A stretch of DNA of 64,000 bases from assembly GCA_017477255.1 (NCBI GenBank), contig JAFUXB010000004.1, forward strand, positions 81,132-145,131, in the 5' to 3' direction. The stretch comes from Bacilli bacterium (lineage in GTDB: Bacteria; Bacillota_I; Bacilli_A; RFN20; CAG-826). Shown here piece after piece: positions 31,017-50,096 of the stretch. Under the pieces are notes generated by a model. That model saw nothing but the letters and a program-made list of their open reading frames with translations, searched no databases and was not told where the DNA came from. A program made the translations under genes and the position numbers. How positions within the stretch are numbered: the first letter of the stretch is position 1; each line of letters opens with the position of its first letter.

Positions 31017-31028
31017 ATTTATTCCTCC

Positions 31029-32882
31029 TTATGCTCCATAATTCACTTCTACATAAGAACTTTGCCATTCGTAATTAAATAAAGAAGCAGGGGCTTCCTC
31101 TTTATTTTTCCACATATGGAAATTTAAAATTGCAAATGTATTAGCTCCAGAGCCAAGACTAAAAGCGCCAGTTCCAATGTTATAAAGGTTACTACAATAA
31201 AAACTAAATGTTAAATTAGTAGTTCCTGATTTATAGAATGCGTAAGATCCAATAAATTCAAGATTTCCTGGCATTGAAATATAGCTACCAGAAGTAAAAT
31301 ATTTATTTTTTAAATTTTGCATTTTTCCAAATCCACAAGAGCCAATATAAGTAATGTTATAAGGCATATCTACATATGTATAATTTGTACAATAAAATGC
31401 TTTTCCACCTATATATTCAACTGGATTGTCATAACTTAAACTAGTGATTTTATATTCATTAGTGCCATTAAAAACTTTATATAAAACATGATTACTAGTT
31501 CCATATAAAGCATTATTTTGAACAACAAAGTTTTCATTTTCTGAATCTAATGAGAATGAGTGATATGCTTCAAGGGTATATCTAAAAAACATAATATCAA
31601 TAAATCTTGTATCTTTTAAAATATTTGTAGAAGTGGCAGTTTTTGATGATCTAAATGCATAAAATTCATTAATTACACCATTTCCATCATCAGTAGAAGA
31701 AATATAACGGATATCATCAATTACATTATTATCATATTCTTCATTATCTGCAATAAATGCTAATGGATCAACATCAGTTAAAGATTTTGGTAAAGCAAAA
31801 TTAGTAACTTTACAATAAGAAAATGCCCTAAACCCAATTGTTTTTAAAGTATTTCCTTCAAAATTAACTTTTTTAATCCTTATATTATTTCTTAAAATTT
31901 CATCGTAAATTATAATTGTTCCTTCTTTAAATGTGATTTCATCACCTTTAAAAAATCTATCGATTTTATAAGCAATTTGATAAGGATATGTGTCATTTCC
32001 AATATAACATATTCCATCAACTGGATTTCCTTCTAAAGAAATACAGTTTTGGAAAATATTTTTTCCAATCTTATTAATATTTAGTTCTTTAAATCCAAGT
32101 TTTACGTTTTCTAAAGATATACAATCATTAAACGCATAATTTTCAATATCAGTAACAGTAGAAGGAATAACTACACTTTCTAAATTAGAACATCCAGTAA
32201 AAGCGTATTCTCCAATAGTTTCAATTGGATTTTCTAAATTATTTTCTAAAACTACTGATTCTAATGTAGTCATATTTTTAAAGAAATTTTCTCCAATATT
32301 TCCACCATTATAGAAAACTGTTCTTAGTTTAGTTGGGAATTGACTATAATCTTCAAATTCAGTAGAGAATAAATAATTTAATGAATATGTTACGTTATTA
32401 TCACCAATTTGATTATATTTTAATATTTCTAAATTTGATGAATTAAATGCACCCATTTCAATTACATAATCAAATTCATTAGTTCTTGCTTCAAGTTCAT
32501 AAGATCCATCAAGTTTAGCAGGATAAGCAACTAAGGTAAGATAAGGAGATTTAGTAAATAAAGCATCATTTTTAATAAATAAATTTTCATTTCCTTCAGC
32601 TATATTAAATCTTTCTATATTAGAGCAGCCATAAATTGCTCCTCTTTCTATTTCATTAATATATTTACCAAAAGTAATAGAAGTAATTAAATTATTTCCA
32701 GCAAAAGCACCTTCTTTTACTAAAGTAACAGGCACTCCTTGGAACGAATCAGGAATAATTACATTTAAATCTTCACCTCTATATTCAGTAACAGCAAATT
32801 CATCTTGGCTAGTTTCTTCATTATAAAAATGTTGAAATACTAGTCCATAAGAAAAATAAGAAGGAGTATTATTTCTCTTCAT
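31029..32882 (-). CDS. BspA-like LRR_5 protein (possibly the C-terminal part of a split lipoprotein)
   Basis: IIPDSFQGVPV and IGEYAFTGCSNLESVVIP; no signal peptide; ATGA overlap with the upstream ORF. Confidence 0.8.
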   Translation of the reverse strand: MKRNNTPSYFSYGLVFQHFYNEETSQDEFAVTEYRGEDLNVIIPDSFQGVPVTLVKEGAFAGNNLITSITFGKYINEIERGAIYGCSNIERFNIAEGNENLFIKNDALFTKSPYLTLVAYPAKLDGSYELEARTNEFDYVIEMGAFNSSNLEILKYNQIGDNNVTYSLNYLFSTEFEDYSQFPTKLRTVFYNGGNIGENFFKNMTTLESVVLENNLENPIETIGEYAFTGCSNLESVVIPSTVTDIENYAFNDCISLENVKLGFKELNINKIGKNIFQNCISLEGNPVDGICYIGNDTYPYQIAYKIDRFFKGDEITFKEGTIIIYDEILRNNIRIKKVNFEGNTLKTIGFRAFSYCKVTNFALPKSLTDVDPLAFIADNEEYDNNVIDDIRYISSTDDGNGVINEFYAFRSSKTATSTNILKDTRFIDIMFFRYTLEAYHSFSLDSENENFVVQNNALYGTSNHVLYKVFNGTNEYKITSLSYDNPVEYIGGKAFYCTNYTYVDMPYNITYIGSCGFGKMQNLKNKYFTSGSYISMPGNLEFIGSYAFYKSGTTNLTFSFYCSNLYNIGTGAFSLGSGANTFAILNFHMWKNKEEAPASLFNYEWQSSYVEVNYGA

Positions 32883-33400
32883 ATTTTATATTTAATATCT
32901 TTAGTTACTGGACTAATTACATTATTTAAATCTTCAATGTTTTTAATAGAAGTAGCAAAATCTAAAGAAGGAAGTTTTCCATATTCTACTTCTTGAGAAT
33001 TAACTAATGTTCCATCTTCTAAATAAAATTCAACTTTATAAGATTTTCTAATAGGAGTGAAATTAGCTTTTGCTATTGTTTCATTAGTTTCTTTATTATA
33101 TGAATAACTCCAATTTTTAAATTTAAAGTCATATTTAGAAGTACTTTCTCTAGTAGGTTCTTCCTCATTAAATCTAACATCTTTAGTTAAATCTTTAGTT
33201 TCTTTTAAAGTTTCACCATTATAGTTAATAAATCTAACTTTATTAGATTTTGCTAAAGGTAAAACTTTATTATTTAGCATCGAAGCTGGTTGTTCATTTT
33301 TATTTTCACTATTTTTTTCATTAATATTAGCTGAACAACCAACAAGTAAAAGTAGTGGTATTATCGTAAAAGCGATTTTCTTAATTATTTTGCTTTTCAT
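32879..33400 (-). CDS. Lipoprotein with B-repeat-like domains (possibly the N-terminal part of a split LRR lipoprotein)
   Basis: Start MKSK at 33400 after the RBS AGGAG; lipobox LVGC; VRFINYNG..YDFKFKNW and VEFYLEDG..VEYG. Confidence 0.7.
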   Translation of the reverse strand: MKSKIIKKIAFTIIPLLLLVGCSANINEKNSENKNEQPASMLNNKVLPLAKSNKVRFINYNGETLKETKDLTKDVRFNEEEPTRESTSKYDFKFKNWSYSYNKETNETIAKANFTPIRKSYKVEFYLEDGTLVNSQEVEYGKLPSLDFATSIKNIEDLNNVISPVTKDIKYKI

Positions 33401-33508
33401 ATTAATTTCGCTCCTTATATATTTAATTTTATTAAAATATATAATTTTTGACATCATTTTTTTGAACAAAAATATTTCTTATTGTATATTAAAGACGAGG
33501 TATTAATA

Positions 33509-33949
33509 ATGAGTTACAAATTTTATGGTCATGAAAATAGCAAAATTTTAAAAAATAATAGTGAATATAAAGGTATTTCAACTACACTCGAGCTTTATGA
33601 TTTATTAAATGATATTTGGTGTGAATATAGCTGTGCACCAAGACTTAGAAAAGATTGGAGTTTAGAAAATAAAACAGTAGGACAATGTTCAACTACAGCA
33701 TTTTTAGTTCAAGATATATTTGGTGGAAAAGTTTATGGAATTCCTTTAGAAGATGGAAGTTTTCATTGCTATAACGTAGTAGATGGCTACGTATTTGATT
33801 TAACTAGCGAACAATTTGGCAATAAAAAATTAGAATATAAGCTAGAAAATGAACAATTTAGAGAAGATCATTTTAAAAATGAAGAAAAATATTTAAGATA
33901 CAAATATCTTTGCGATGAACTTAAAAAGAAATTAGCAAAAAATATATAG
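33509..33949 (+). CDS. YunG-like protein
   Basis: W..ENKTVGQCSTTA..VQDIFGG, HCYN and DLTSEQF. Confidence 0.7.
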   Translation: MSYKFYGHENSKILKNNSEYKGISTTLELYDLLNDIWCEYSCAPRLRKDWSLENKTVGQCSTTAFLVQDIFGGKVYGIPLEDGSFHCYNVVDGYVFDLTSEQFGNKKLEYKLENEQFREDHFKNEEKYLRYKYLCDELKKKLAKNI

Positions 33950-34168
33950 TTTTTTGATTGCAAAATAAGTTTTATTAGACATAAATCTTATACTCATATT
34001 GATAAACGCTAGCATTATGTGTTTAAGAAAAATTACTAAAAATGTGAAGAACATAACCTTCTTGAATGAATGGATAAGAATTCACGTGCACCTGTTGAAG
34101 TAATTAATTCAACTTCGCCAAGTGTAAGAACTAATAAGACATTGGTGGATGTAAAAAAGGAGAAATAA

Positions 34169-34193
34169 TGAAGTGAACTCCAAATCGGACACT
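34169..34193. mobile_element. Possible IS3-family terminal inverted-repeat remnant
   Basis: TGAAGTGAACTCCAAATCGGACAC resembles IS3/IS150 ends (TG...CCAAA..GGACA). No transposase or partner end was seen. Confidence 0.4.
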
Positions 34194-34247
34194 TAAAATA
34201 ATAAAGACCAAAAGACGGAAATCGATTAAGACTCCTGTTTTTTAGTT

Positions 34248-34455
34248 ATATTGAAACAACTGTGTTGATACAAGGATTTTCCTTAAATCAACACTTTTTT
34301 GTTGTTTTGTTGTATCAAGCCTATTGTATAGCAAGGATTTATGACAACTATAGTGATACAATTTTTCCTCTTGTATTCTTATAGTTGTGTATTTTAAAAA
34401 GTATTTACAGGAAAGGTCTAAAAATACACGAAAGGTCAGGCTATCGAGTAAAACT
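34248..34455 (+). other. att-like site A: core ATATTGAAACAA plus right arm
   Basis: Core at 34248-34259, followed by a hairpin and ACA(C/G)GAAAGG repeats (34407, 34426), homologous to 42690-42895. Confidence 0.65.
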
Positions 34456-34632
34456 AGGCTTTTAAATCCAAAAAATCTCCAAAGGATTCTGAAATTTGTT
34501 AACATAATGCATTAATGTTGAGAAAAAGACAAAATAAATATGCGATAAAATGGTCTTTATATAGCAATTTATCAAAAAGATGATATACTATGATAAGAAA
34601 TGACTAATTATGCAAAGAATGAGGTAAAATGT

Positions 34633-34824
34633 ATGGAATTCAAGGAAAAGTTAGTTTATGTTAGAGCAAAATTAAATCTTACTCAAGAGGAATTAGCGAA
34701 AAAACTTAATGTATCTTTCCCTACAATTTCAAGATGGGAAAACGGAAAGACAAGGCCTACAAAAAAAGGACTTATGACTTTTGATGTTTTTTGCAAAGAA
34801 AACAATATTATTTGGGAGGATTAA
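34633..34824 (+). CDS. XRE-family HTH regulator (controller-like), first gene of the defence operon
   Basis: LTQEELAKKLNVSFPTISRWENGKTRP; RBS GAGGT before ATG 34633. Confidence 0.88.
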   Translation: MEFKEKLVYVRAKLNLTQEELAKKLNVSFPTISRWENGKTRPTKKGLMTFDVFCKENNIIWED

Positions 34825-34826
34825 TT

Positions 34827-37103
34827 ATGGCTACTAATTGGGATGATTTGGTCTCTGGTGAAGAACTTCTTAAAGCTACAAAAAAGAGAAAAAATAAATT
34901 TATTGAGCAAAAAGTGTCTGCAGATAAAATTGATGAATTTATCAATAAAGGTTGGGAAGTATTTAAAGAATATAAAAATGGTTCAGCTCTTGTGAAAAAA
35001 GAAAAATCTGTAGGAGATCTATTTGAAAATGAAGTTTGGCTAATATTCCAAAAAATGGGATTTAAGGTGATGAACGCCACAAATAAATTTAAATTAGATT
35101 ATTCTGATGTTTCGTCTAAGCAAATTGATATAATTGCTATTGATGATGAAATTTGCTTACTAATTGAGTGTAAGGCAACTGAAAAAGAAGATAATACTAA
35201 AACTTGGAAGACTGAACTTGAATCAATTAACGGAAACTTCAAAGGGTTATCCAATGAAGTTAGAAAGAAATATCCTAAAGTAAGAGTTAAGTATATTTTC
35301 GCTACAAAAAATTTCGTTATTGGTGATGCTGATATTAAGAGAATGGAAGATTTTAGAATCGCTAATTTCGATTATGAAAAAGTAAGATATTACAATGATT
35401 TGTCAGATCATTTAGGTTCTGCAGCTAGATATCAATTATTGGGCAATTTATTTGCAAAAACTGAAATTAAAGGTATGAATTCAAGTGTTCCTGCAATTGA
35501 AGGAAAAATGGGAAACAAGACTTATTATACTTTTTTAATTGAGCCAGAAAGACTGTTAAAGCTAGCATATATTTTACATAGAAATAAAGCAAATCATAAA
35601 TTAATGCCTACATATCAAAGACTAATTAAAAAAGATAGATTAAAAGCTATTAGAAAATTTGTTAATGAAGGAGGGTATTTTCCTAACTCTTTAATTGTAT
35701 CCATAGATACAAATGGAAGAGGAGTTGTTTTTGAACCATCCTCAACCAGAACTGATAATAACCTTTCAAGAATGGGTACGTTAAAGCTTCCAAAGACTTA
35801 TCAATCTTTATATGTAATTGATGGACAACATAGATTATACGGTTATTCTGATTCAAAATTTGCTTCATGTAATTCAGTTCCTGTTGTGGCTTTTGTTGAT
35901 ATGCAAAAACACGAACAAGTTAAACTGTTTATGGACATAAATGAAAATCAAAAATCAGTACCTAAAGGTCTTAGAAACACATTAAATATTGATTTATTAT
36001 GGAATGCTGAATTATATGCTCAAAGGCAGGAAGCATTACGATTAGATTTAGGACAACAATTGGGTGAAGATACAAAGTCTCCTTTATACGGTAGAGTTGT
36101 TACAGGTGAAGATTTATCAAATACAAAGCGTTGTATAACTCTAGATTATATTAACGATGCTTTTAAGCAATCAAATTTCTTTAATATTTACAAAAAAGGT
36201 AAGAACGAAATACTGACTCCTGGTACATTTGATAAGACAGATAATGATGAGACAGAGGCTATATTATTTCCATTTATATCTAAGTGCTTTAAAACAATTA
36301 AGGATTATTGTTCAGAAGAACGGGATAGAGGTAGTGAGGGATTTTTAACAATTAACAATACCACATTTGCCTTGATTAAAGTTTTTAATGATATAGTCAA
36401 TATCCAATTAAAGAAAGAAAATAAGGTGATAGTTGATGATGGTGATTCTTTCTTTAAAGAATGTGAAGGCATGTTATTAAATTTAGCTGATACAATTAAT
36501 ACTTTAGACCTTGATACGATAAATGCAATTAAAACTGCGAAAGGCGGAGCAGCTAAGAAAACATCATGGAATAAATTAAGGGTAGCTTTTAATACCAAGT
36601 TCCCTGATTTTACATATCCAGAACTTGAAGAGTATGTCAAGGAAAATTGTGTTAATAATAATCCGTATGCTTCACAATATATTGGAGAAATACTCGATGA
36701 AATCAAGAGACGTTTGAAAGATAAAATTGGAAATGACTCTCAATGGATGCACAAGTATTTACCTGAAAAATTAAGAAATGATTTAATATCTAAAGTTGCA
36801 ATTGAAAAAGTAAATAGACAAATTCAAGGTAATGATGAGGAAGTCGATGAATGGGACTATATTTCTTTTAATGAAATCAAACAAATTGCAAACTATGGTA
36901 CAAACTGGTCAGCTTTTTGCAGTGATGTTTTAGTTTTACCATCCAATAAGATGAATAAAATTAATACCTTGCAATGGCTTACTGATTTAGAATCAGCTAA
37001 AAATAGAATCAGTTTAAATCAATCTATTGTTACAAGTGAGTTTGAATCAATTAAGAAAATATATAGTGAATTTATTAAAGATGAAAATGGTGAGGCTATC
37101 TAA
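34827..37103 (+). CDS. DGQHR (DndB/ParB-like) domain protein with N-terminal PD-(D/E)xK nuclease-like and C-terminal Swt1/HEPN-like domains
   Basis: FENEV...QIDII...IECK; YQRLIKKDRL, FPNSLIV, VIDGQHRLYG and FMDINENQKSV. Start at ATG 34827 after GGAGG. Confidence 0.85.
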   Translation: MATNWDDLVSGEELLKATKKRKNKFIEQKVSADKIDEFINKGWEVFKEYKNGSALVKKEKSVGDLFENEVWLIFQKMGFKVMNATNKFKLDYSDVSSKQIDIIAIDDEICLLIECKATEKEDNTKTWKTELESINGNFKGLSNEVRKKYPKVRVKYIFATKNFVIGDADIKRMEDFRIANFDYEKVRYYNDLSDHLGSAARYQLLGNLFAKTEIKGMNSSVPAIEGKMGNKTYYTFLIEPERLLKLAYILHRNKANHKLMPTYQRLIKKDRLKAIRKFVNEGGYFPNSLIVSIDTNGRGVVFEPSSTRTDNNLSRMGTLKLPKTYQSLYVIDGQHRLYGYSDSKFASCNSVPVVAFVDMQKHEQVKLFMDINENQKSVPKGLRNTLNIDLLWNAELYAQRQEALRLDLGQQLGEDTKSPLYGRVVTGEDLSNTKRCITLDYINDAFKQSNFFNIYKKGKNEILTPGTFDKTDNDETEAILFPFISKCFKTIKDYCSEERDRGSEGFLTINNTTFALIKVFNDIVNIQLKKENKVIVDDGDSFFKECEGMLLNLADTINTLDLDTINAIKTAKGGAAKKTSWNKLRVAFNTKFPDFTYPELEEYVKENCVNNNPYASQYIGEILDEIKRRLKDKIGNDSQWMHKYLPEKLRNDLISKVAIEKVNRQIQGNDEEVDEWDYISFNEIKQIANYGTNWSAFCSDVLVLPSNKMNKINTLQWLTDLESAKNRISLNQSIVTSEFESIKKIYSEFIKDENGEAI

Positions 37104-37933
37104 TGGAAACAATATTAAAATGGGCTGGAGGGAAAAGATTATTAATAAATCAAATATCAAAAATAATAAATCCTGACCAGTTAAAAAAAGACAATGGACA
37201 TTACTATGAACCATTTATTGGCGGTGGCGCTATTGCCTTTTCATTAGAATTGAATGAAACCGTCATTAATGATTCGAATAAAGAATTAATTAATATGTAT
37301 AATGTTATAAAAAACAATCCTAGCGAATTAATTGAATTACTAAAAATTCATCAATCTAAATATTCTGATGCTTATTATGAAAGAATTAGAAAAATGGACC
37401 GAAGTAAAAATTATGATAATATTTCGAATGTTGAAAAGGCTGCAAGATTTATATTCCTAAATAAAACTTGCTACAATGGCTTGTATAGAGTTAATTCTAG
37501 CGGACATTTTAATGTTCCAAAAGGAAAATATAAAAATCCAGATATTATTATGGAAAAAAAGATAAATGGACTTAGTAGATTACTCAATGAAAAATCGTTC
37601 AAAATAACTTGTTTAGATTTTGAAAAAGCAGTAGAGGATGCAACCAAAGGAGACGTAGTATATTTTGATCCACCATATGATTATGAAGAAACTGGTTTCA
37701 CATCTTATTCAGCAATAGGATTTAACAAATCTGATTTAGTAAGATTAAAAAATTTATGTGACAGATTAATTGATAGAGGCTGTAGAGTAATAATTAGCAA
37801 TAATGACACTAAGTTTGTCAATGAATTGTTTAAATGCAATGGATATAAGATAGTTCATATTGAAGCTTTTAGATTTATAAGTTGTGATGGTTCAAAGAGA
37901 TCTAAAGTGAAAGAGGTTATTATTTATGGATAA
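37103..37933 (+). CDS. dam: Dam/DpnIIA-type (D12 class) N6-adenine DNA methyltransferase
   Basis: LKWAGGK, YEPFIGGGA, NGLYRVN..G.FNVP.G and YFDPPY. Confidence 0.92.
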   Translation: METILKWAGGKRLLINQISKIINPDQLKKDNGHYYEPFIGGGAIAFSLELNETVINDSNKELINMYNVIKNNPSELIELLKIHQSKYSDAYYERIRKMDRSKNYDNISNVEKAARFIFLNKTCYNGLYRVNSSGHFNVPKGKYKNPDIIMEKKINGLSRLLNEKSFKITCLDFEKAVEDATKGDVVYFDPPYDYEETGFTSYSAIGFNKSDLVRLKNLCDRLIDRGCRVIISNNDTKFVNELFKCNGYKIVHIEAFRFISCDGSKRSKVKEVIIYG

Positions 37934-38381
37934 GAATATACCATTTCCACAAGCTGATGATTTTAATAAAGTCATATCATTGTTAAATATTGAAGATGAA
38001 AGCAATTTGAAAAATAAAAACAAGATAAGTTTATTATTTGATGGAATAGCAGATAGACAGGTTCAGTATTATTTATCTGCATGTATGTATTTAGGCTTTG
38101 TTGATGAAAAAAAAGAATTCACATTATTGGGCAAAAAACTTAGAAAACTCTCAAGAACCGAACAAGAAATAGAATTAGCGCAAATTATTGTATCACATGA
38201 TGTTTTTGGGCATGTATATTTTTTAGAAAAACGTCTTGGAACGAAATTAGATAGAAGCGATGTTATTGAACTGCTTAAAACATATGTCAGTTTTGAAAGC
38301 GAAGAAATGTATAAAAGACGATCTCATACCATTATTAAATGGATTGAGTGGATAAATGATAAATTTAATGATGAATTTTAG
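37926..38381 (+). CDS. Winged-helix protein of a type associated with restriction systems (DUF7226-like)
   Basis: FPQADD, RQVQYYLSACMYLG and RRSHTIIKWIEWI; overlaps the MTase stop. Confidence 0.65.
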   Translation: MDKNIPFPQADDFNKVISLLNIEDESNLKNKNKISLLFDGIADRQVQYYLSACMYLGFVDEKKEFTLLGKKLRKLSRTEQEIELAQIIVSHDVFGHVYFLEKRLGTKLDRSDVIELLKTYVSFESEEMYKRRSHTIIKWIEWINDKFNDEF

Positions 38382-38520
38382 GAAAATAACATTGTTTATA
38401 TTACTATCTATTCCTTTAGTAATGTTGTGTTCTTGCAGTAACAAAAATGTTATATCAAACAATCCGTATACAAAAGAACCTTCAATAACAATACTATCAA
38501 CTGATTCAGAGGAAGATGAT
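38371..38520 (+). pseudogene. 5' half of an interrupted lipoprotein gene (continues at 41221)
   Basis: Signal peptide with lipobox LCSC. Ends in the 11-bp AGGAAGATGAT, which is repeated in the same frame at 41221. Confidence 0.55.
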
Positions 38521-38558
38521 TCAAGTACGAGTAAAATTTTAGAAAGGGGATAAAGCAG

Positions 38559-40580
38559 ATGATAAAAATTGATTTTCACATTCATACAATTAAAACAGAC
38601 TTAGATTCTGCATTTGATTTTAGTCTTGATAAAATTTCAGAATATGTGCAAAAAAAGAAAATTAATGCAATAGCCATTACTAATCATAATTTATTTGATA
38701 GAGCAAATTTTGATCTTATAAAAATTCACTTGAAAGATGTAGCTGTTTATCCTGGTATAGAAGTAACTCTTGAAGGTGGTCATTTAATTGTTGTTGCTCC
38801 TTTTACTAAAATAGAAGAATTTGAAGAGCAATGTAAAAAAATACATGATGAGTTCAAAGAAAAGAATGATATTTCTCTTGATTTCTTTATGGATATATTT
38901 TCTAATCATGAGGAGTATTTATTAATCCCACATTATGATAAAAATCCAAAAATACAAAAATTTATTTTAGATAGAATTGGCTCTAGTTTTATCTGTGGAG
39001 AGGTTTGCAGTCCTAAAAAATTTATAAGATTATATAAAGAAAAAGGAACTTTGACACCTTTACTCTTTAGTGACATGAGGATGGCTGATGATATCCCATT
39101 ATTAAACAAACAAACATATATTGATACTGACTCTACTGATTTTTACTCAATGAAGGAAGCAATTCGTGATAAAGAAAAGGTTTATATTAATGACAAAAAG
39201 AAGAGGGACTTATTTCCAATTTTAGATGACGGGACATTAGCTTCTTCTGGGTTAAATATTATTTTTGGTAAGAGATCATCAGGAAAAACATACACTTTAG
39301 ATCGAATAAATGAAAATTTTGATAATGTTAAATATATTAAACAGTTTGATTTGATTGAAAAGGATAAAGAAGCTGCTAACAAAAAATTTGATGAAAGTAT
39401 GTCAAATGATAGAAGTATTTATAGCGATGAATATCTGGCTGAATTTAAGGAAATTGTAAATAATGTTTTAAGTATTAATTATAAAGAACAAGAAACAAAG
39501 CTTAGCGATTATGTTTCTTCATTAGTTGAATTTGCTGTTGATATGGATAATCATGATGCTTTTTCTAAAGTCCCAGTTTTTAGTGAACAAAAATTTGAAT
39601 ATGTGATAGATAAAAAACCTAAAAACATTATTGATTCTATTTCAAATTTACTAGATTCTGGAACATACGAAAAAATAATTAATAAGTACATTTCCAATGA
39701 GAATCTTATTAAAATGCTAAATGAATTCGTCAAAATTCATAGGGAAAAGAAGAGAGAAGAATTAATATGTAAACAAGCAAATGAATTGATTGATAAGATT
39801 CAACGTGCTTTATCAATTGAGTCATCTCAAAATGCTATTCCATCATTTGATATTAATCAATATGCTACGGATGTAATAAAGAAGAATTTGTTTGTAAAGA
39901 TAGCTGACATAATTAAAAAACCTAAACTTTTATTAGAAAATCAAATTGGAAAATTTAAAATAGTAGCTAAAAGAGAACCGTTTGGATCTGCAAAAGAACT
40001 ACAAAATTTTGTTGGAAAAAAGGGAGAATACTCATCATCATATAATTTATATGATAATCCTTTCGATTATTTAAATTCTTTTGAAGATAAACCGCATATA
40101 CAAAAAGATCAAATTTATAAGTATTTTGTTAGAATCAATTATCAGGTATTAAATGCCAATGGCTATCCTGTTTCTGGTGGTGAACGTGCTGAATTTAATT
40201 TAGAAAAGAATTTAAGTGATGCTGAGAACTATGATATGTTGTTGATTGATGAGCCCGAATCATCATTTGATAATATATTTTTAAGAACTGATATTGTTGA
40301 TAAAATTACATCAATAAGTAAAAAAATACCTGTATTTGTATCAACACATAATAATGTTCTTGGTGGAAATTTAAATTCAAACTATATTTTGTATACTGAA
40401 GCAGTTAATACAGCAGATGGAACTATGTTTTCTATATACGGAGGAAACAGAGAGAATAAAGTCTTAACTTCTGTAAATAATACTCAAATTAAGAATTATG
40501 TAGTAATGATTAATAGCTTAGAAGGAGGAGAGGAATCATATGTTGAGCGAAAAGAAACCTATAAAAATCTTAAAGATTAA
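38559..40580 (+). CDS. PHP phosphoesterase fused to an ABC/SMC-like ATPase (Ppl-like anti-phage protein)
   Basis: DFHIHT, AITNHN, PGIEV, PHY and FSD; Walker A GKRSSGKT, signature SGGE, DEPE and STHN. Confidence 0.85.
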   Translation: MIKIDFHIHTIKTDLDSAFDFSLDKISEYVQKKKINAIAITNHNLFDRANFDLIKIHLKDVAVYPGIEVTLEGGHLIVVAPFTKIEEFEEQCKKIHDEFKEKNDISLDFFMDIFSNHEEYLLIPHYDKNPKIQKFILDRIGSSFICGEVCSPKKFIRLYKEKGTLTPLLFSDMRMADDIPLLNKQTYIDTDSTDFYSMKEAIRDKEKVYINDKKKRDLFPILDDGTLASSGLNIIFGKRSSGKTYTLDRINENFDNVKYIKQFDLIEKDKEAANKKFDESMSNDRSIYSDEYLAEFKEIVNNVLSINYKEQETKLSDYVSSLVEFAVDMDNHDAFSKVPVFSEQKFEYVIDKKPKNIIDSISNLLDSGTYEKIINKYISNENLIKMLNEFVKIHREKKREELICKQANELIDKIQRALSIESSQNAIPSFDINQYATDVIKKNLFVKIADIIKKPKLLLENQIGKFKIVAKREPFGSAKELQNFVGKKGEYSSSYNLYDNPFDYLNSFEDKPHIQKDQIYKYFVRINYQVLNANGYPVSGGERAEFNLEKNLSDAENYDMLLIDEPESSFDNIFLRTDIVDKITSISKKIPVFVSTHNNVLGGNLNSNYILYTEAVNTADGTMFSIYGGNRENKVLTSVNNTQIKNYVVMINSLEGGEESYVERKETYKNLKD

Positions 40581-40851
40581 AGATGGGAAAGGCTATTATT
40601 TAGATAAAAACGGAAATTATGTTGAAGTTGATAAGGTTGATAGAGATTCTTTGTTATATCTTATAAATTTAGTGATTAATAGTGAAGTCGAAATTGAAAC
40701 ATATGATGAATCTCTAATTTTAAACAAAGTTCATCAAATTATTTATAAAGAGATTTCTCAAAAAATACAAACTTTAAATACAAGTAAGTTGACACTTTTA
40801 TCTAATATAGATACTGAATATGCTGACTTGATTAACAAGTATAAAGATTAG
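40540..40851 (+). CDS. Small hypothetical protein coupled to the PHP-ATPase
   Basis: Overlaps the 3' end of the PHP-ATPase gene; 103 aa; start uncertain. Confidence 0.6.
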   Translation: MLSEKKPIKILKIKDGKGYYLDKNGNYVEVDKVDRDSLLYLINLVINSEVEIETYDESLILNKVHQIIYKEISQKIQTLNTSKLTLLSNIDTEYADLINKYKD

Positions 40852-41120
40852 ATTTAGTAATTGGTTTAATTCAAATTATTAAACTCTGTGAATTGGTAGT
40901 GAAATAGTGGATCAAATTATAAAAAATTATAATCGTTGTGTGCAAAGACTATTATGACAATTTTAAAGTCATAGATGAAGATGTAGAATTATATGGTAAA
41001 TATACTCATTTATTTGTTTTTAGATGCGTAATGGATAAGCAAATAAAAACTGATAAAGCAAGCAGGAGTAGGTCATTTGTATCCAAACCTTAAAGTGGAG
41101 ACTTTTTCTTATTACACGTA

Positions 41121-41221
41121 AGGGTGTTTCAAGGGTGTTTCACTTTTTCGTTATGGTGTTTCAAAATTTAAGGGATGTTTCATTTGTATTACCATACTTG
41201 TCCTTATACATATTGAAACAA
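41121..41221 (+). other. att-like site B: left arm (GGTGTTTCA repeats) plus core
   Basis: AGGGTGTTTCA at 41121 and 41132, GGTGTTTCA at 41155, GGGATGTTTCA at 41172; core ATATTGAAACAA at 41210-41221. Confidence 0.65.
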
Positions 41222-41387
41222 GGAAGATGATCCATACATGAATAAAACAATAGAATTAATAATTGATAATACAATAGTAGATGTTAATTGGTTAGATAAT
41301 GATTCTGTTACAGCCTTGACTAATCTTGCAAAAGATGGAATCATTAGTTTTGATAAAGTATTTTTTGAAAAGCACCAAACAAAGTAG
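41221..41387 (+). pseudogene. 3' fragment of a cyclophilin-like-fold lipoprotein
   Basis: EDDPYMNKTIELIIDNTIVDVNWLDNDSVTALTNLAKDG resembles the start of cyclophilin-like (DUF369-type) domains, then breaks off. Confidence 0.5.
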
Positions 41388-41407
41388 TAGATGGTACTAT
41401 TAAAGAA

Positions 41408-41660
41408 ATGCACGAAGGATGTGCAGATTTTGTTAGAAGAGGCGAAGCTTTCTATTATGATACTAAGGGAAAAATAAAGGATAAATTTCCTAAAGAAGAA
41501 AGAAATTCAAACGGTGTTTGTCATGTAAGACCACATGCAAGAGTAGGATTGGATCACTATGAATTACCAATAGCTGATAAAGTGATAGGAATAACCTCAT
41601 ATACAAAGCAGAGTTTTTAGTTTAATAAGGATTTTGTTGAAAAAATGATAAATGGTGCTG
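41408..41660 (+). pseudogene. C-terminal remnant of a Sau3AI/MutH-family restriction endonuclease
   Basis: CHVRPHAR...TKQSF(TAG)FNKDF, with TAG at 41618 where this family typically has Trp (KQxFWxN). Confidence 0.6.
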
Positions 41661-42584
41661 AAGAATGGTGATTTTTGTATGGATACTAAAAATGAAGAGT
41701 TATTTAAAAGATATTTAAATCCAACGAGAGGTTCCCATTATGTAAAAAGAGAGTATTTATCTAATTGGTCTAGTGATGGAACGCACATTTTAACATGTAG
41801 AGATAAAACTAATTTTGTTTCAAACAATTTGAAAGATGTCTGTACTGAAAGAGATATGTATAAAATGGAAAAATTAACTAATCTCGAATTAATGCAAGTA
41901 CAAACTTTTTATAAAAACTCAAAACCTCGGGTAAAGGAAATAAATGATAGTTTTATTGGTATGTGGCAACTTGCTTGTTCAATTATGGAAAACAAAGACA
42001 ATCCAGAAGACAAAAACTTGGCAAATAAAATAGCTATTCAGTGCGGAGAAGATTTACAATCTAATTTTGAATCCACTTTAGATGATTGTATAAAAAAATG
42101 CTTGTTAAATTGTGAGGAAAGTTTTTTGGACCAAGATGACAAATTACTAAATTTTGGGCTTTATCTTTTTAGTCAATATTTAAGAACTCAAAAACAAAAA
42201 AACAAAGTAATAAATAACCTAGAAAACGCTAATCATTTTGAAAATATTAAAGGTCAATTGAATCCTGAAAAATTGTGGAAAGTACTGATTATTATTATGA
42301 CAAATATGGCGTCTTATGAATTATTATCTAGAAAAGAAACAAACCATATTTGTTTTATCAAAAGTAATCAAAAAGCATTAATTACTAGTGATCAACCAGT
42401 TGTAAATATTGCGAAAGATATTGACCATGATTATGTAAAATTCTATTATCCTATTTCTCCATCAGTTTCTATAATATTTCCTGTTGAAAAGTTTTCAATA
42501 ATTGAAGACGATATTAGCTTAATAAAGAAAATGAATGATGTAATTATAAATAATAGTTATAGAATGTTTTTTAAATTAAAATAA
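41652..42584 (+). CDS. DUF4238-like protein
   Basis: HYVKREYLSNW near the N-terminus, QYLRT, ITSDQPV and YYPISP. Confidence 0.75.
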   Translation: MVLKNGDFCMDTKNEELFKRYLNPTRGSHYVKREYLSNWSSDGTHILTCRDKTNFVSNNLKDVCTERDMYKMEKLTNLELMQVQTFYKNSKPRVKEINDSFIGMWQLACSIMENKDNPEDKNLANKIAIQCGEDLQSNFESTLDDCIKKCLLNCEESFLDQDDKLLNFGLYLFSQYLRTQKQKNKVINNLENANHFENIKGQLNPEKLWKVLIIIMTNMASYELLSRKETNHICFIKSNQKALITSDQPVVNIAKDIDHDYVKFYYPISPSVSIIFPVEKFSIIEDDISLIKKMNDVIINNSYRMFFKLK

Positions 42585-42630
42585 AACACTAAAAAAGAGA
42601 TAAAAATAAGATATTTTTTGAAACATTTTT

Positions 42631-42895
42631 AAGGGGTGTGCAAAGGGTGTGCAGTGGTGTGCATTGTATTAAAATGATTCATCTTTGCCATATTGAAACA
42701 ACTGTATTGAAACGAGATTCTGGTCTCAAATCAGCACTTTTTCTTTATTTATAGACAATTTTGGTAAAGTTCAAGTCCTGTTACCGATAATAATGCCTAA
42801 TTTTTATTTGTTGAAAACAAGCTGGTAAAGTGTGCTTACACGAAAGTTTTACTTTTACACGATAGACACGAAAGGCCAAAGCTATTGTGTAAAGT
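42631..42895 (+). other. att-like site C: left arm, core and right arm
   Basis: GGTGTGCA x3 at ~11-bp period, core at 42690-42701, a hairpin, and ACACGA x3 (42838-42875). Confidence 0.7.
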
Positions 42896-42917
42896 AAAAA
42901 ACGTTTATATAAAATAC

Positions 42918-43014
42918 GTGAATGCTTAAAATAAATTCCTGATAATAAACAAACTTAAATTTTATTAGACCAAATTCTCAAATTTTAATTTAAAACGGAA
43001 TTTGAATTGAGAAT
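42918..43014 (+). repeat. 97-bp dispersed repeat, copy 2
   Basis: Matches 12464-12560. Confidence 0.8.
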
Positions 43015-43320
43015 TATAGTGTTTTTAGAGGATTTTTGAGCACATTAAAAAGAATGTGTAAATTCCGTTTATTAGACTAAATTCCGTTTAAAAAACAAAA
43101 ACTGATTTTACTTTTAGAATTAATGTAGAAAAAAATGTAATGCTTTTTAAAAAAGAAATTGATAAATTTAAGGGAATGGTCAACAATCTCTTTTTGTTAT
43201 GATCGACAATTATGTAACGAAAGAGAGGATATGGTTTTGTTTGATAAGGGATGTAAAAGAGGATTTCTTCCTCTAAAAAATTATATTTAATATTTTTGGG
43301 TATACATAGTTGGAGGAAAT

Positions 43321-44169
43321 ATGAAAACAACAATCAAATTATTTTTAATGGATGGAACTGCAACAGGAAGGATTAAATGTAGTTTTTCTTCTGGATGGAA
43401 TGGAATCGGGTATAAAATTCCAAAATCAGATTTAGATAAATGTGATAATATCACTTTTTTAAAGCAAGCAGGTGTATATTTTTTATTTGGGTGCGATGAA
43501 GAAGACAGTGAATTTGTATATGTAGGACAAGGAAATAAGAGACAAAATGGGCAAGGAGTACTTAGTCGAATAAAAGAGGCTCATGATAGCGTTCCATTAT
43601 GGAATGCTTGTGTAGTTTTTGTTTCTTCAGGAGAAGATATAGGTCCTACTGAATTAAATTATCTTGAAAATAGATTTACTAATATGGCGTCTGTGTCAGG
43701 AAGATATCTAGTTAAAAATAATAAAAATCCAAGCTCATCTCAGCTTTCAGAAGAAGATGAAGCGGATATGTCATTATTCATCGAAAATTCAAAATTAATT
43801 TTAAGTGCATTAGGTTATAGAGTTCTTGAGGAGCCTCTTGTGACAAACAATGATAAACAGACTACATATACATATTCTTATAACGGAAAAAAAGCAAAAG
43901 GAGTTCTCAGTGATGATGGGTTCGTTTTACTTAAAGGAAGTCAACTTAATGACGAAAGTTCTTTTGCAAAAAGATGGATTAAAAAAATACCGGCACAAAG
44001 AAATTTATATAAAAACAAAATAGAAAACTTGGTCACAACAGAGGATATACTTTTTAAAAGTTCATCTGGCGCAGCATGCTTTTGTTCTGGGCAATCTGTT
44101 TCCGGACCTAAAAATTGGGTTGATTCTGATGGAATAAGCCTAGAAAATAAAATTAAAAAAAATGTTTAA
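43321..44169 (+). CDS. GIY-YIG nuclease with C-terminal DUF4357
   Basis: IKLFLMDG, GVYFL...VYVGQ, YLE, FVLLKGS and FKSSSGAA...SGPKNW. Confidence 0.85.
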   Translation: MKTTIKLFLMDGTATGRIKCSFSSGWNGIGYKIPKSDLDKCDNITFLKQAGVYFLFGCDEEDSEFVYVGQGNKRQNGQGVLSRIKEAHDSVPLWNACVVFVSSGEDIGPTELNYLENRFTNMASVSGRYLVKNNKNPSSSQLSEEDEADMSLFIENSKLILSALGYRVLEEPLVTNNDKQTTYTYSYNGKKAKGVLSDDGFVLLKGSQLNDESSFAKRWIKKIPAQRNLYKNKIENLVTTEDILFKSSSGAACFCSGQSVSGPKNWVDSDGISLENKIKKNV

Positions 44170-44279
44170 TCTTTTAAAATATGTAAATAGTATTGAATTT
44201 TTGACTATTCTAAAATTTTAATGTAGTTAACCAATATCAAGAATTGAAATAAAAATTTATAAACTGCATAATAATAACA

Positions 44280-44360
44280 CCATAAAGAGTGTGGTTAGGG
44301 ACAAGCCCAGTAATCCACCGGCAACCCAAGTAATGTTGGGTGCCAAAGCTTGAACGATGG
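44280..44360 (+). ncRNA. SAM-I-clan riboswitch (compact variant lacking P4, SAM-I/IV-like)
   Basis: CCAT-AAAGAG, AGGGAC-AAGCCC, CCGGCAACC, GGTGCCAA and GATGG; P1 is CCAT/ATGG. Confidence 0.8.
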
Positions 44361-44376
44361 GAACAATAAAACTATT

Positions 44377-44406
44377 AAAGCTCCTATCGTGACGATGGGA
44401 GCTTTT
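44377..44406 (+). terminator. Riboswitch-coupled intrinsic terminator
   Basis: AAAGCTCCTATCGT-G-ACGATGGGAGCTTTTT. Confidence 0.8.
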
Positions 44407-44438
44407 TAATTCCTCTTTATGGTATTAAGGAGAGAAAT

Positions 44439-44957
44439 ATGGAAAAAGAATTATATGAGGATTTAAAAAGGCTTTATAGAGAACAATTAGGGGGATATGC
44501 AGATCGATATTGGAGATTTCGTGTATATTACCTTTTAAAAGAAAATTATAACTATGATTAGGATGACCCTAAAAATCGTAAAGAAAGGGAAGAAATGTTC
44601 AAGGATGAAACTCCTTGGAAACCAGACCCAGTAGTATATGAAACTTACATACCAGATAAAGAAATTAAAGAAAGAATCTTAGGTGAACTTAAAACACAAA
44701 ATAAAGATTTGTATGAAAAAGTGATTATTTTAGAGAAATATCTAGATATGTCTTTAGATGAATATAAAGAAGCGCGTGGAAAATATTTTATCGGTGCATA
44801 TTGCAATGATATACCTTTGATAGATAATTGGTCAAAAGAGAATTTAAGGTCAATTAAATTCCCTGAAAATGTTGACTTAATGCAAAAATACTATGATTAT
44901 TTTATTAAAAAATATCCAAGTTTATTAAATGTAATAGAAAGAGAACTCAAGAAATAG
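44439..44957 (+). pseudogene. Hypothetical gene with an internal in-frame TAG
   Basis: RBS AAGGAG and ATG 44439 are in frame with ORF 44595-44957; TAG at 44559-44561. Confidence 0.6.
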
Positions 44958-45134
44958 TTAGAAAATAGCAAGGATTAAAGCGTTTTTGGATTACTTTTAT
45001 ATTTATTGATCTAATTAATACATTATTTATTAGGATATAAAATATCTTGAGTTTTTGAGTTTTCATCAAGTTATTTTATATATCAAATAATGAGCTAACA
45101 AAAATATAAATTATTTTTATATTGGAGAAATATT

Positions 45135-48100: not shown

Positions 48101-48260
48101 ATTAGAAACTATAATTGGGGGCGAAAATGTAGTAATTCCAAACCAAATTGAATATAGTGGTTCTTTAATTGATGTTGAATCCTATAGTTATGATCTATTT
48201 TATAATCATTTAGACATAAAAAGTATTTGTTTTAATGATAACATTACTGAAATGTTATAG
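45135..48260 (+). CDS. Lipoprotein with a long coiled-coil stalk, B-repeats and BspA-like LRRs (frameshifted at the 3' end)
   Basis: Lipobox LSGC; recurrent DKKALEEDYN-type heptads; VTFNSNGG and YEFTGWD; LRR_5 repeats. Confidence 0.8.
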   Translation: MKNKFLLGLAICLGTVSLLSGCTKDDLMAALDNNTSELQSEIDNLKEQIKVLQDKITSLDNSMSEEIKNVKNDYQAKIDECNLKINQNTKKIKELEEQLALEKANLEKDYNDKLAGLKLQFETKNEELSAKILKNSQDLEALTKKHDDDKKELQDDYNKKINDLDTKDTLAREELQKDYKERLENLDNKYFSEVEKLNETITSLNNSFVNFKIQYDADKKALEEDYNTKINSLSENEQAARDKLKEEFQEALEQLETEFNNQVSTINSNYEELKAKHDADKIALEDDYNSKINSLSEEELKARNELKEDYDKKISDLDNEFNEKVNSLNESLESLTTNFDLFKEQYVKDKKALEDALNEEILNLNNKLDSTKNEIIEDYNKKIGDLDQKYQEQVTVLNQALEQDKSDLNKFKENYAVDKKALEEEFESKLNNLVTKYDAEISDIQGEINSLNSELVNLKTEMNNLIEEIQNDYNSKISDIISRLETLEAVEYHTVTFNSNGGNEVASQKVKHGEKVKEPTISRTGYNFNYWTYKEKEFDFDYFIVTEDITLEASWSYIPYSVTFKNDDGSILEKHENIEYGTSIEYEGETPTKAIQEEHYVYEFTGWDIDTSFVNGDLIATAQYSASYAPYTVEYLDEDGTLLQSKYVTSENESTYDGEVPTKENDELYEYQFKERKKISADDQKITFKAEYYKKSIDITFEQGSYMGENLEWVYAESCKYVSKYSGIEEEPIIPDMWDNQKVVGISQMAFQSCSTVKKISLPRYMRVLNELAFYHCNNLSEITFNDDLILIGDSCFSSTKLKTIKLNKNLLRIDPYAFSYCDLIDEVEIPEKITSDNLGPKIFYACKNLSKVTIHENIKEIPSEMFHGCTSLKEVQGFEYIETFNDSCFYACSLLNDGVINISKNVKSIGKSVFSTNKIYINASANLKLFPYIATASVIYLDIENDLKTFASDWSSGIIVLYGYKGCIYDSLGSKYAVYMRNGEYKARLETIIGGENVVIPNQIEYSGSLIDVESYSYDLFYNHLDIKSICFNDNITEML

Positions 48261-49167: not shown

Positions 49168-49331
49168 TCTTTTATAATTAAAAATAAATAATAGTAATTA
49201 AACAATATTAAACAGTGAATTTCATATTCATTTTAGTATATTGATTTAATTTATAATAAAATAATGCAGGTAAAATATAATTAACTATTTTTAGATAAAT
49301 CTAAAATACGTTAAAACCTGCATTTTTTATT

Positions 49332-49359
49332 AAAAACCTTACAGAACTCCAATATTTTT
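49332..49359 (-). repeat. 28-bp dispersed repeat (copy 6)
   Basis: AAAAACCTTACAGAACTCCAATATTTTT. Confidence 0.65.
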
Positions 49360-49612
49360 ATTAAAAGGCAAACTTTATGAAAAGAAAAATTGTGCCATTT
49401 ATTATGTTTACTGTTATTGATATAATCTTATTAAATTAATATATTATTAAGGAAAAACGAGACATTTTTGTAAAAGTGCCTCGTTTTTATTTATTCGGAT
49501 TAATGTTAACTTATAAGTAGCAATCTTCAAATAAGAGAAATGCTTAATTTACTGTTGATATTACACGCATTTAATGTTTATAATATGTATGAAAATTGTG
49601 GAGATATTGTTT

Positions 49613-49906: not shown

Positions 49907-49934
49907 CAGATTTTTAAAAGACTTAAAGATTTGA
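49884..49934 (+). pseudogene. Truncated YafQ-family toxin
   Basis: GGAGG plus GTG start overlapping the dinJ end; reads VLTIVRSNRFLKDLKI then TGA; the rest is absent. Confidence 0.7.
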
Positions 49935-50096
49935 AAAAGAGAAGATAGGCTCCAAATTAAAAAGGGAGTCTTTTATTGAATTTAAGAGAGTTTTTGCCTA
50001 TTTATAATTTGATATATCAGTTAATTCTCATATTTTTTAAAAATTAAATAATCAAGTACTTGCAAATTTTTCACCAGCATTTATACTTAAAGCGAG

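Follow-up and report, generated by a model that had tools for sequence, protein, structure and literature searches.

The subject of this report is a 64,000-nt stretch of DNA from a Bacilli bacterium (GTDB genus CAG-826), hereafter the window, in which a defense island is divided by three related sites, designated A, B, and C. The sites are probably attachment-site junctions of a family of integrating elements, between which defense cassettes without a recombinase have been stacked, to be moved, if at all, by a phage recombinase pair acting in trans. The feature itself is real: the sites belong to a family with a dyad-symmetric center, whose members are positioned at the ends of tRNA genes, and cassette boundaries fall at a central CA dinucleotide. 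Furthermore, near-identical cassettes are present in different species and contexts, and the left arm of the site is linked to tandem serine recombinases of prophages. All coordinates refer to the window unless stated otherwise; its source assembly, G000, comprises 837 kb and is 53% complete. G-numbers denote genomes, each of a different species, and L-numbers denote fetched loci.

Sites A, B, and C and their junction-module family

The 12-nt core ATATTGAAACAA occurs in exact form at 34248 (A), 41210 (B), and 42690 (C), in each case on the + strand. These three copies compare with 0.08 expected by chance, and none of 100 shuffles reached three. When one mismatch was allowed, three copies were counted in the window against 3.71 expected, i.e., no excess over chance; thus, the core signal resides in the exact copies and their context. 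Across the whole of G000, 11 copies were found, comprising the three window sites, three duplicates on contig C3, and five stray copies that lie within unrelated coding sequence and lack arms. Contig C3 carries a reverse-complement copy of the region on C7 in which the distances between the three sites are the same (6,962 and 1,480 bp), which means that the assembly is redundant here and that genome-wide counts are doubled. One of the stray copies (G000:C2:99314) lies inside a gene for a 300-aa tyrosine recombinase, read as Xer-like, where it encodes NIET; we take this to be a coincidence.

The first-pass annotation of this DNA had described the three exact cores, a left arm common to B and C, and a right arm common to A and C, and all of these were located as claimed. 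The left arm consists of GGTGTTTCA boxes at 41123, 41134, and 41155 with a variant, GGATGTTTCA, at 41173 in site B, and of GGTGTGCA boxes at 42635, 42646, and 42656 in site C. Both left arms continue into TGTATTA (41185 and 42665), which starts 24 nt upstream of the C preceding the core. The right arms of A and C have in common CTGT, a hairpin, a T-run, and the box ACACGAAAGG at 34426 and 42866, respectively, 178 and 176 nt from the core; degenerate further copies of the right-arm box lie at 34407 and 42838. The hairpin folds with -14.2 kcal/mol (z -3.85) in A and -7.4 kcal/mol (z -1.25) in C, and no hairpin fold was obtained for B. The sites are laid out as follows:

34247..34469, + strand: site A; right half-site only (34248-34272, ATATTGAAACAACTGTGTTGATACA), terminator hairpin with T-run (34262-34300), and right arm
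34407 and 34426, + strand: site A right-arm boxes ACAGGAAAGG and ACACGAAAGG, respectively
41123..41234, + strand: site B; left arm with four boxes and a 50-bp site (41185-41234), with central CA at 41209-41210 and right outer motif ATGATCCA (6/9)
42635..42910, + strand: site C; full junction module with three GGTGTGCA boxes, a 50-bp site, a hairpin, and a right arm
42665-42714, + strand: site C 50-bp site; TGTATTA, central CA at 42689-42690, and TGAAAC, with one mismatch in the right motif
42702-42745, + strand: site C weak hairpin with T-run, followed by right-arm boxes ACACGAAAGT at 42838 and ACACGAAAGG at 42866

The end of the site A arm was set by position 34470/34471, where contigs of three other metagenomes begin to match the adjoining cassette (see below). 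In site B, everything expected beyond position +25, namely the 3' arm of the hairpin, the T-run, and the right arm, is missing.

A BLAST search with site C matched many genomes of relatives over the stretch from TGTATT to the core, often at contig ends. A sequence-only model, R1, was then built from 13 aligned examples of 10 genomes. Within the genus, R1 matched 48 of 60 genomes, including 37 of the 40 of good quality, with up to 13 matches per genome; at the level of the order (E <= 1e-5), it matched 84 of 151 sampled genomes and 33 of 47 genera. The matches fall into full modules, right-only, and left-only classes. Site C is the top match in the window (53.7 bits, E 7e-15); the match at A (34239-34300) covers model positions 38-98 only, and that at B (41168-41232) covers positions 5-69. 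No further site appeared in the window at E up to 1, and no closing left arm was found after the third cassette. A search of 30000-50000 against Rfam, also at E up to 1, returned only an S-adenosylmethionine (SAM) riboswitch and nothing at the sites. Site C is 79% identical over 127 nt to the sequence directly behind tRNA-Leu(CAG) in G027.

The alignment of these matches defines a module of two to five direct-repeat boxes, a 50-bp dyad-symmetric site, and a right arm of ~220-300 bp. The 50-bp site is composed of TGTATCAAA, 15 nt, CA, 15 nt, and TTTGATACA. The two outer motifs (-24..-16 and +17..+25) form a 9-bp inverted repeat, 35 bp apart, with its axis between the C and the A. Over 46 aligned sites, position 0 is C in 44/45 and position +1 is A in 46/46. 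Of the elements named in the first-pass annotation, TGTATT at 19 nt ahead of the core corresponds to the left outer motif, and CTGT plus hairpin corresponds to the right half-site. The right outer motif doubles as the 5' arm of the hairpin that precedes the T-run; a fold of <= -6 kcal/mol was found in 32 of 35 sites and a T-run in 33 of 35. The hairpin arms differ between subfamilies, the 3' arm varying together with the 5' arm. In our reading, the hairpin and T-run form an intrinsic terminator, with which the element equips the tRNA gene or cassette upstream. The boxes of the left arm, spaced about 11-22 bp, also differ by subfamily (GGTGTTTCA, GGTGTGCA, GGGGTYGCAA, GGGGTGTCG, GGGGGTGCAC, or GGTACGAA), and those of the right arm, spaced 19-28 bp, are ACGAAAGG-like or TAGAACGATTAC.

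Left-only matches were considered as natural array ends, and this reading was rejected on inspection of four of them: two are insertions of an IS3-family insertion sequence (IS) into the hairpin (L089, L094), one has another terminator after CCA (L024), and site B is a truncation. The IS3-family element, seen in the terminator hairpin at two loci of G011 (L089:8646-8760, L094:10480-10625), has the terminal repeat TGAACTGAACCCCATTTAGTTCAC and carries rve and HTH_Tnp_1 genes; the module hairpin may be an IS target.

tRNA ends and prophage recombinases

The position of the right half was examined in 20 fetched right-only matches. In 18 of them, the match starts at the last bases of a tRNA gene, with the right half exactly after CCA; of the two exceptions, one has no tRNA and the other has a tRNA-His about 220 nt away. 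Ten anticodons are represented behind these 18 matches (Glu-TTC, Glu-CTC, Leu-CAA, Leu-TAA, Leu-TAG, Gly-CCC, Arg-CCT, Ala-GGC, Ala-CGC, and Lys-CTT). Additional cases were found at the ends of tRNA-Leu(CAG), tRNA-Met, and, on a viral contig, tRNA-Gly(TCC). One site follows a 3' end that, judged by eye, resembles that of a transfer-messenger RNA (tmRNA), for which ARAGORN made no call. The same 150-300 bp stand behind different tRNAs and are often nearly identical across species. Conversely, the trailers and terminators of tRNA genes in G000 are unrelated in all 10 examined (10 of 14 genes, the four left out being the inner genes of one tRNA cluster). The shared sequence behind the tRNAs is therefore imported rather than native, and its interpretation as a native tRNA trailer was ruled out.

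The left arm and the tRNA ends agree at few positions. The tRNA genes have TTCRA at -21..-17 in 20-21 of 22 junctions, in the same register as ATCAA of the left arm. Beyond CCA and the TCRA in the register of the T-loop, left arms share nothing with tRNA ends; the idea that the left arm is a tRNA relic was rejected because agreement is limited to CCA and these four positions. The T-loop, which is universal and keeps a constant distance from CCA, could thus serve as a generic half-site. As a separate observation, the IMG/VR provirus G208 (L123:2200-2350) has GGGGTTGCA-type boxes followed by ~30 nt from the 3' part of a tRNA (T-arm, acceptor, and CCA), behind which stand the customary right half and a type I restriction-modification (RM) cassette. 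Here, a different phage may have integrated into the tRNA ahead of an existing array.

Candidate enzymes were found next to the left arm. In the genus, 14 of the 60 genomes yielded a total of 34 matches to the Recombinase domain (PF07508); the proteins, about 435 and 530 aa long, are often encoded in tandem pairs. Fourteen loci of such large serine recombinases (LSRs) were examined, 12 from these 34 matches and two from viral records. At 10 of the 14, the recombinase gene or genes are followed 0.1-3.7 kb downstream by a co-oriented left arm: five of eight tandem pairs (L068, L111, L113, L114, and L116), three of four single or fragmentary genes (L062, L096, and L117), and both viral records (IMG/VR contig L128 and phage PV036447.1). 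At these loci, the left arm is formed by GGGGTGTCG-type boxes, TGTATYA, and a final CA. These 10 loci agree with what is expected of an autonomous element with an LSR att site, in which a recombinase with Resolvase, Recombinase, and zinc-ribbon domains is encoded beside the site. Genes for Dit_N (distal tail protein), other tail genes, and lysis-module genes precede the recombinases, which identifies the carriers as prophages; two of these (L068, L111) have accessory genes between the recombinases and the left arm. The closest phage records to the recombinases are gut phages classed as Ca. Heliusvirales, at 52-57% identity and with two matches per record. The main text of a paper on this lineage (PMC11283538) makes no mention of tRNA, integrase, recombinase, attachment site, or integration site.

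Phage PV036447.1 (Anaeroplasmataceae phage NatCom_34063) ties both halves of the module to one record. Its right end has three GGGTGTCG boxes and TTGTATTAAAATAGTTGTGTAAATACA, 116 nt past the second recombinase, and its left end starts with CACCA, followed by TTAGAGTACATTAGTCTTGATAC (the right half-site), a hairpin, and a T-run. The phage record thus has one half of the module at each end, with the cut at CA. In the same phage (L131:5100-5206, L132:160-250), a left-arm stretch of ~26 bp (GGGGTGTCGG box plus GAAGTAATCGTTCTAAC) recurs in inverted orientation in the right arm, where TAGAACGATTAC is also present three to four times; a single factor might bind these repeats on either side of attP. 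In addition, an open reading frame (ORF) behind the second serine recombinase has a weak AP2-domain match, below the Pfam cut-off, at two loci (L111:11713-12342, E 2e-4; L115:3846-4463, E 4e-4), and none was found in the other seven of the nine recombinase-downstream ORFs tested. A putative AP2-like protein that binds the box repeats is offered as a lead only.

Attachment sites (attP) of large serine integrases of the phiC31, Bxb1, and A118 type span ~50 bp and show imperfect dyad symmetry around a non-palindromic central dinucleotide, and in phages with such integrases the recombinase gene adjoins attP at the prophage end. The module shares with them the ~50-bp site, the inverted half-sites, the conserved non-palindromic dinucleotide, and, in its prophages, the neighboring recombinase gene. 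It differs in having two recombinases instead of one, flanking direct-repeat boxes, many apparent targets that share only the geometry from T-loop to CCA, and attP-like joints that persist inside arrays.

From these features, a mechanism can be proposed. The functional site would be the ~50-bp dyad-symmetric sequence, on which the tandem serine recombinases probably act, with crossover at the invariant central CA; the breaks in homology at this dinucleotide point to such a crossover indirectly. In the naive state, the CA would be the last two bases of the CCA in a tRNA or tmRNA gene, so that an element would insert exactly behind the tRNA and bring its own terminator, the right half-site serving as the 5' arm of the hairpin. 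Autonomous members of the family would be temperate Heliusvirales-like phages with two tandem LSRs at the right end, beside the left arm. The window cassettes, made up of two arms and defense genes, would be hitch-hiking or derived elements integrated one behind another. Site C would then be an attP-like joint between two elements, its central CA intact and its hairpin weakened; site B would be a joint without its right arm, everything beyond +25 having been replaced by gene fragments; and site A would be a remnant consisting of the right half and arm only. The degenerate site A, the truncated site B, and the missing left arm after cassette 3 indicate an old array in partial decay, whose anchor either has been lost or resides in a rearranged stretch of surface-protein genes. 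Mobilization of the cassettes would occur in trans, if at all, through the phage recombinase pair, much as recombinase-less elements of the staphylococcal cassette chromosome (SCC) are moved by CcrAB.

A more far-reaching version of this mechanism is possible, and we put it forward only tentatively. The phage LSR pair may use the geometry of tRNA and tmRNA ends (T-loop TTCRA at a fixed distance from CCA, crossover in CA) as a generic landing pad, such that any tRNA operon end could accept an element and have its terminator replaced. Two-armed defense cassettes without a recombinase might exploit these enzymes in an order-wide, SCC-like exchange of anti-phage genes among small-genome gut Firmicutes, and the boxes might bind a directionality or accessory factor through which attP-like joints become able to recombine.

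Cassettes and their occurrence among relatives

In arrays of relatives, a tRNA gene is followed by the right half and arm and a first cassette, after which full modules and further cassettes alternate (L019, L061, L090, L091, L096, L100, and L107). The cargo is accessory and often defensive, such as type I restriction systems with a helix-turn-helix (HTH) gene, GmrSD, DUF4238, AbiEii, Schlafen/AlbA_2, T5orf172, and AAA_14/DUF4143 (PDC-S01); ordinary small metabolic or regulatory genes are also included. None of the 11 annotated site-to-site or tRNA-to-site intervals of relatives contains an intact LSR, and their recombinase-type content is one fragment, one small resolvase, and one hsdS-shuffling tyrosine recombinase. 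Likewise, the window intervals A-B and B-C are without a recombinase. Among type I restriction cassettes behind a module, some contain a ~330-aa tyrosine recombinase between two inverted hsdS genes (L062:7225-9298, G015:C20, and G074:C1), an arrangement that we read as a phase-variable, hsdS-shuffling system.

Two species provide an example of a cassette in different positions. Contigs G001:C41 and G075:C11 have 6,740 bp in common at 98.9% identity, consisting of the right arm, an HTH gene, and hsdM-S-R. The identity breaks exactly at CA, beyond which lies a left arm with boxes in G001 and tRNA-Leu(CAA) in G075. As the two genomes are of different species, recent transfer of this type I restriction cassette as a unit is indicated.

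Further evidence came from four public metagenome runs, of which only contigs were aligned to window positions 32000-46000. Run X3, which belongs to the study of the likely source and is the one other sample with the whole island, has the same arrangement, with single contigs across A and from B to C; these contigs confirm the assembly, but not independently. In X4, a manure sample of another study, a single 7,217-nt contig contains cassette 1 (34470-41135) at about 97% identity (185 differences in 6,666 nt). This contig begins with 200 nt unlike the window, followed by 122 nt that resemble the core and right arm of site C from 42689, which is the C of the CA, and by 125 other letters in front of cassette 1. 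Behind the cassette, it has a left arm shorter by 40 nt, the core up to 41221, and 57 further letters. A 6,946-nt contig of X5, from a pig sample of another study, covers 34471-41218 at about 96% identity (295 differences in 6,652 nt), with a left arm shorter by 32 nt; in both runs, the deficit corresponds to one repeat unit fewer. Pieces of cassette 1 from 34471 on were also found in X7, from a third other study. Taken together, these contigs indicate that cassette 1 travels with its left arm and core, that its cargo starts at 34470, and that the ~220-nt right arm in front of it is exchangeable. In X5, a 35-nt unitig (TTGTATT...CATATTGAAA) reaches a depth of 692 compared with 17.6 for cassette 1, which implies that the site is common to many genomes or loci of this community. 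In relatives and metagenome contigs alike, the gene content changes exactly at the sites. The suggested tandem accretion of recombinase-less cassettes with modular arms is in turn supported by the cassette boundaries at these sites.

The cassettes of the window, assigned with Pfam and PADLOC, are as follows:

34470..41122, + strand: cassette 1 cargo
34600-34824, + strand: XRE/controller-like HTH (cassette 1)
34791-37103, + strand: DndB/DpdB-like DGQHR protein with N-terminal nuclease-like region (cassette 1)
37103-37933, + strand: Dam-type N6-adenine methyltransferase (cassette 1)
37926-38381, + strand: DUF7226, matching the C-terminal part of a type II restriction endonuclease model (cassette 1)
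38559-40580, + strand: PDC-M49A PHP-ATPase (cassette 1); PDC-M49A/B is a candidate system
40540-40851, + strand: PDC-M49B (cassette 1)
41235..42634, + strand: cassette 2, decayed; truncated small ORF right behind site B, 70-aa ORF, and DUF4238
41408-41620: 70-aa ORF (cassette 2), labeled a restriction endonuclease remnant in the first-pass annotation; no family match
41652-42584: DUF4238 protein (cassette 2; Pfam)
43321..44169, + strand: cassette 3, GIY-YIG/DUF4357 protein (Pfam); PADLOC PDC-S14, a candidate single-gene defense system, E 1.3e-77

With DGQHR, Dam, PDC-M49A/B, DUF4238, and PDC-S14 as its content, the region was fairly labeled a defense island. DUF4238 is found just upstream of a left arm in the relative G067 as well (L062). 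The stated lack of a recombinase nearby was also borne out, since none is present among the Pfam matches of the 54 window ORFs and since a tblastn search of the window with 10 recombinases from relatives gave a best E-value of only 0.07. The only tyrosine recombinases in G000 are two proteins of 300 and 307 aa, which we read as Xer-like from size and high score only.

Further features were noted in addition. Just after cassette 3, a SAM riboswitch-like match (44277-44363, + strand; 39.4 bits compared with a gathering score of 44.4, E 6.6e-06) sits upstream of a 120-aa ORF without a family match (44595-44957). An AAA_14/DUF4143 ATPase, the PADLOC candidate PDC-S01, is encoded at 25831-27144 (E 2e-165) with no module adjoining. 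In relatives, single-gene cassettes of this type lie directly beside modules (L021, L022, L089, L104, L106, and L111).

Alternative explanations, related systems, and implications

Several observations weigh against the interpretation of the sites as attachment junctions served by a phage recombinase pair. In the window, the central dinucleotide of site A is TA instead of CA and its left half-site is missing; moreover, no tRNA is present in the window, and hence none lies to the left of site A as an anchor of the array. No circular or empty junction of the window island (B-left/A-right or an empty site) was seen among the contigs searched, and its left flank has no DNA homolog in 59 other species, precluding a comparison of occupied and empty states. 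The rest of G000, 53% complete, has no resolvase-domain gene or LSR, a point of little weight. In relatives, three of the eight tandem pairs are without a co-oriented left arm (inverted in L103; none found in L112, beside tRNA-Trp, or in L115), as is the single-gene locus L118, a 2-kb contig. G023, at the locus orthologous to the right end of the G017 prophage, lacks a tRNA, and similarity sets in 152 nt past the CA, a comparison that says little about an empty site. The best NCBIfam matches of the recombinases, CcrB, XisF, CcrC, and CcrA, are all far under cut-off (CcrB, 159.7 bits vs. 900; CcrA, 84 vs. 700). To our knowledge, direct-repeat boxes in both arms are not a feature of serine-integrase sites. 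Finally, canonical large serine integrases recombine only attP with attB or attL with attR; for insertion into, or excision between, attP-like joints, one has to postulate either permissiveness of the Ccr kind or an accessory factor.

The alternative that fares best, although we consider it unlikely, accepts the same junction origin and regards the cassettes as inert relics of family prophages after interior deletion, without mobilization in trans today. The leftovers would be the two att arms and the accessory genes carried near the phage ends, and the difference from the explanation preferred here is solely in the present activity of the cassettes. Degenerate sites A and B, recombinase fragments adjoining some left arms (L096, L117), and the failure to see an excision product among the contigs would all suit such relics, and family prophages do hold accessory genes between the recombinases and the left arm (L068, L111). 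However, two species have, at different array positions, a type I RM cassette that is complete from arm to arm and 98.9% identical between them, and cassette 1 is present in the metagenomes of three other studies with both ends and an exchanged right arm. Both points indicate that the units travel as units.

It is improbable that the modules are simply conserved intergenic terminator or regulatory units, with cassettes that enter by transformation or transduction and are swapped by homologous recombination between 300-bp repeats. The length of the modules would suffice for this process, several are present per genome (up to 13 matches), the hairpin makes a good terminator, and right arms are exchanged independently of cargo, as seen in X4, where a C-type arm stands before cassette 1. 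Homologous recombination may therefore add to arm shuffling. Nonetheless, it leaves unexplained the insertion exactly after the CCA of at least 10 tRNA genes with unrelated native trailers, the invariant CA on the dyad axis, the break in identity exactly at this CA, and a phage record that ends in two half-modules.

Just as doubtful is the architecture advocated in the first-pass annotation, in which the sites are tyrosine-integrase att sites, with a core and arm-type direct repeats bound by the N-terminal domain of the integrase or by an excisionase, and the integrase is encoded elsewhere. Both arms do contain direct-repeat boxes, and one array is adjoined by a gene for a 386-aa tyrosine integrase (L104). 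Yet the inverted motifs around the CA are 35 bp apart, as opposed to the 6-8 bp that separate the inverted sites of tyrosine-recombinase cores; the left arm has no copy of the tRNA 3' part beyond CCA; and the same arms stand behind many different tRNAs. Three tyrosine recombinases near sites are of the hsdS-shuffling type (~330 aa) within type I RM cassettes, and that of L104 lies upstream of the tRNA. None of them recurs beside the arms, unlike the tandem serine recombinases, which are the only recombinases repeatedly found beside the left arm (10/14). The proposed search for the core and arms in the genome and its relatives thus recovered the module widely, and the enzymes repeatedly found beside its left arm were tandem LSRs rather than an integrase of the tyrosine class. 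In favor of the tyrosine class, tRNA genes are its classical targets (PMC4383910).

The remaining candidates were dropped: a promoter with TGTATT as -35 and CATATT as -10, sigma-G-like spacing included, because the right half follows tRNA genes and the motifs are inverted repeats; IS200/IS605-type ends (a target plus a sub-terminal hairpin), for want of a hairpin near the left end and of a linked transposase; and a Xer/dif-type module, as no 11-6-11 dyad was found, the last box plus TGTAT being only superficially like a dif arm.

By way of analogy, the closest system is that of the SCC/CcrAB composite islands. SCCmec composite islands and pseudo-SCC elements contain tandem cassettes that lack recombinases and are bounded by the same repeats, and the arrays of relatives match them in this respect, as all 11 intervals are without an intact LSR. 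Further likenesses to SCC and to the Enterococcus cassette chromosome (ECC) are the two tandem LSRs, the variable cargo, often restriction systems, and Ccr as the best NCBIfam match. In contrast to these elements, which target the rlmH 3' end, the present ones use the CCA end of many tRNA or tmRNA genes; tailed prophages, instead of SCC elements, serve as autonomous carriers; and the recombinases are distant relatives only, with no ccrA or ccrB orthologs among them. The SCC/ECC att repeats, like the present site, are about 50 bp long and contain inverted repeats, and TATCATAA is named as their central motif in the ECC paper (PMC6222049). In the present module, the conserved TATCA(T/A)AA is located at the outer edge of the half-site rather than in its center, and boxes flank the site. 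With regard to rlmH, the arrays of G033 and G011 start about 2 kb downstream of this gene (L021:1603-2073, L089:1537-2019; order dnaB, metallo-beta-lactamase-fold gene, rlmH). In neither genome is rlmH placed at a joint. Of the two, G033 was inspected at the 3' end of rlmH and showed no SCC-like site there; in G000, rlmH was not found.

Integrons are arrays of promoter-poor, recombinase-less cassettes that each end in a recombination site and frequently carry defense cargo. The integron-like behavior initially suspected is an analogy only: there is no fixed intI/attI platform, and no attC folded-strand sites are present, the joints being symmetric and of duplex type; the cassettes have their own regulators and terminators; and the recombinase class is another. 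An intI-like gene was found neither among the Pfam matches of the window nor among the tyrosine recombinases of G000.

Stacking behind tRNA genes, by which newer elements push older ones outward, is shared with Islander islands (PMC4383910) and Prochlorococcus tycheposons (bioRxiv 10.1101/2020.12.28.424599), as are remnants, recombinase-less units, and defense and niche cargo. In the latter source, 910 of 937 tycheposon-like elements use tyrosine integrases. In contrast, these islands leave partial copies of one specific tRNA at each joint, whereas nothing beyond CCA is left here; moreover, the same arms are found behind at least 10 anticodons, and the site is serine-recombinase-like. No tyrosine integrase was found at a tRNA-proximal end, and none is encoded among the window ORFs.

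The suggestion that the arrangement is possibly undescribed can be upheld in part. Tandem accretion at tRNA genes and SCC-type islands are known, but the literature searched yielded no description of this site family, that is, of a serine-recombinase site centered on the CCA end of tRNAs or of its use at many tRNAs; nor was a description found of recombinase-less defense cassettes with these phage arms.

The system looks like a widespread route of defense-gene swapping in small-genome gut bacteria. If this interpretation is correct, it would account for the assembly and reshuffling of defense islands in a large group of gut bacteria that are uncultured, with small genomes and otherwise few mobile elements, and it would provide a candidate enzyme for recombinase-less cassettes stacked behind tRNA genes. 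The sequence model would locate cassette boundaries, and hence new candidate defense genes, in hundreds of genomes. Serine recombinases that target a structural feature of all tRNA genes, rather than one sequence, would bear on the specificity of these enzymes and on their use in genome engineering. In this view, the defense cassettes of these bacteria would ride on the attachment system of a very common lineage of gut phages.

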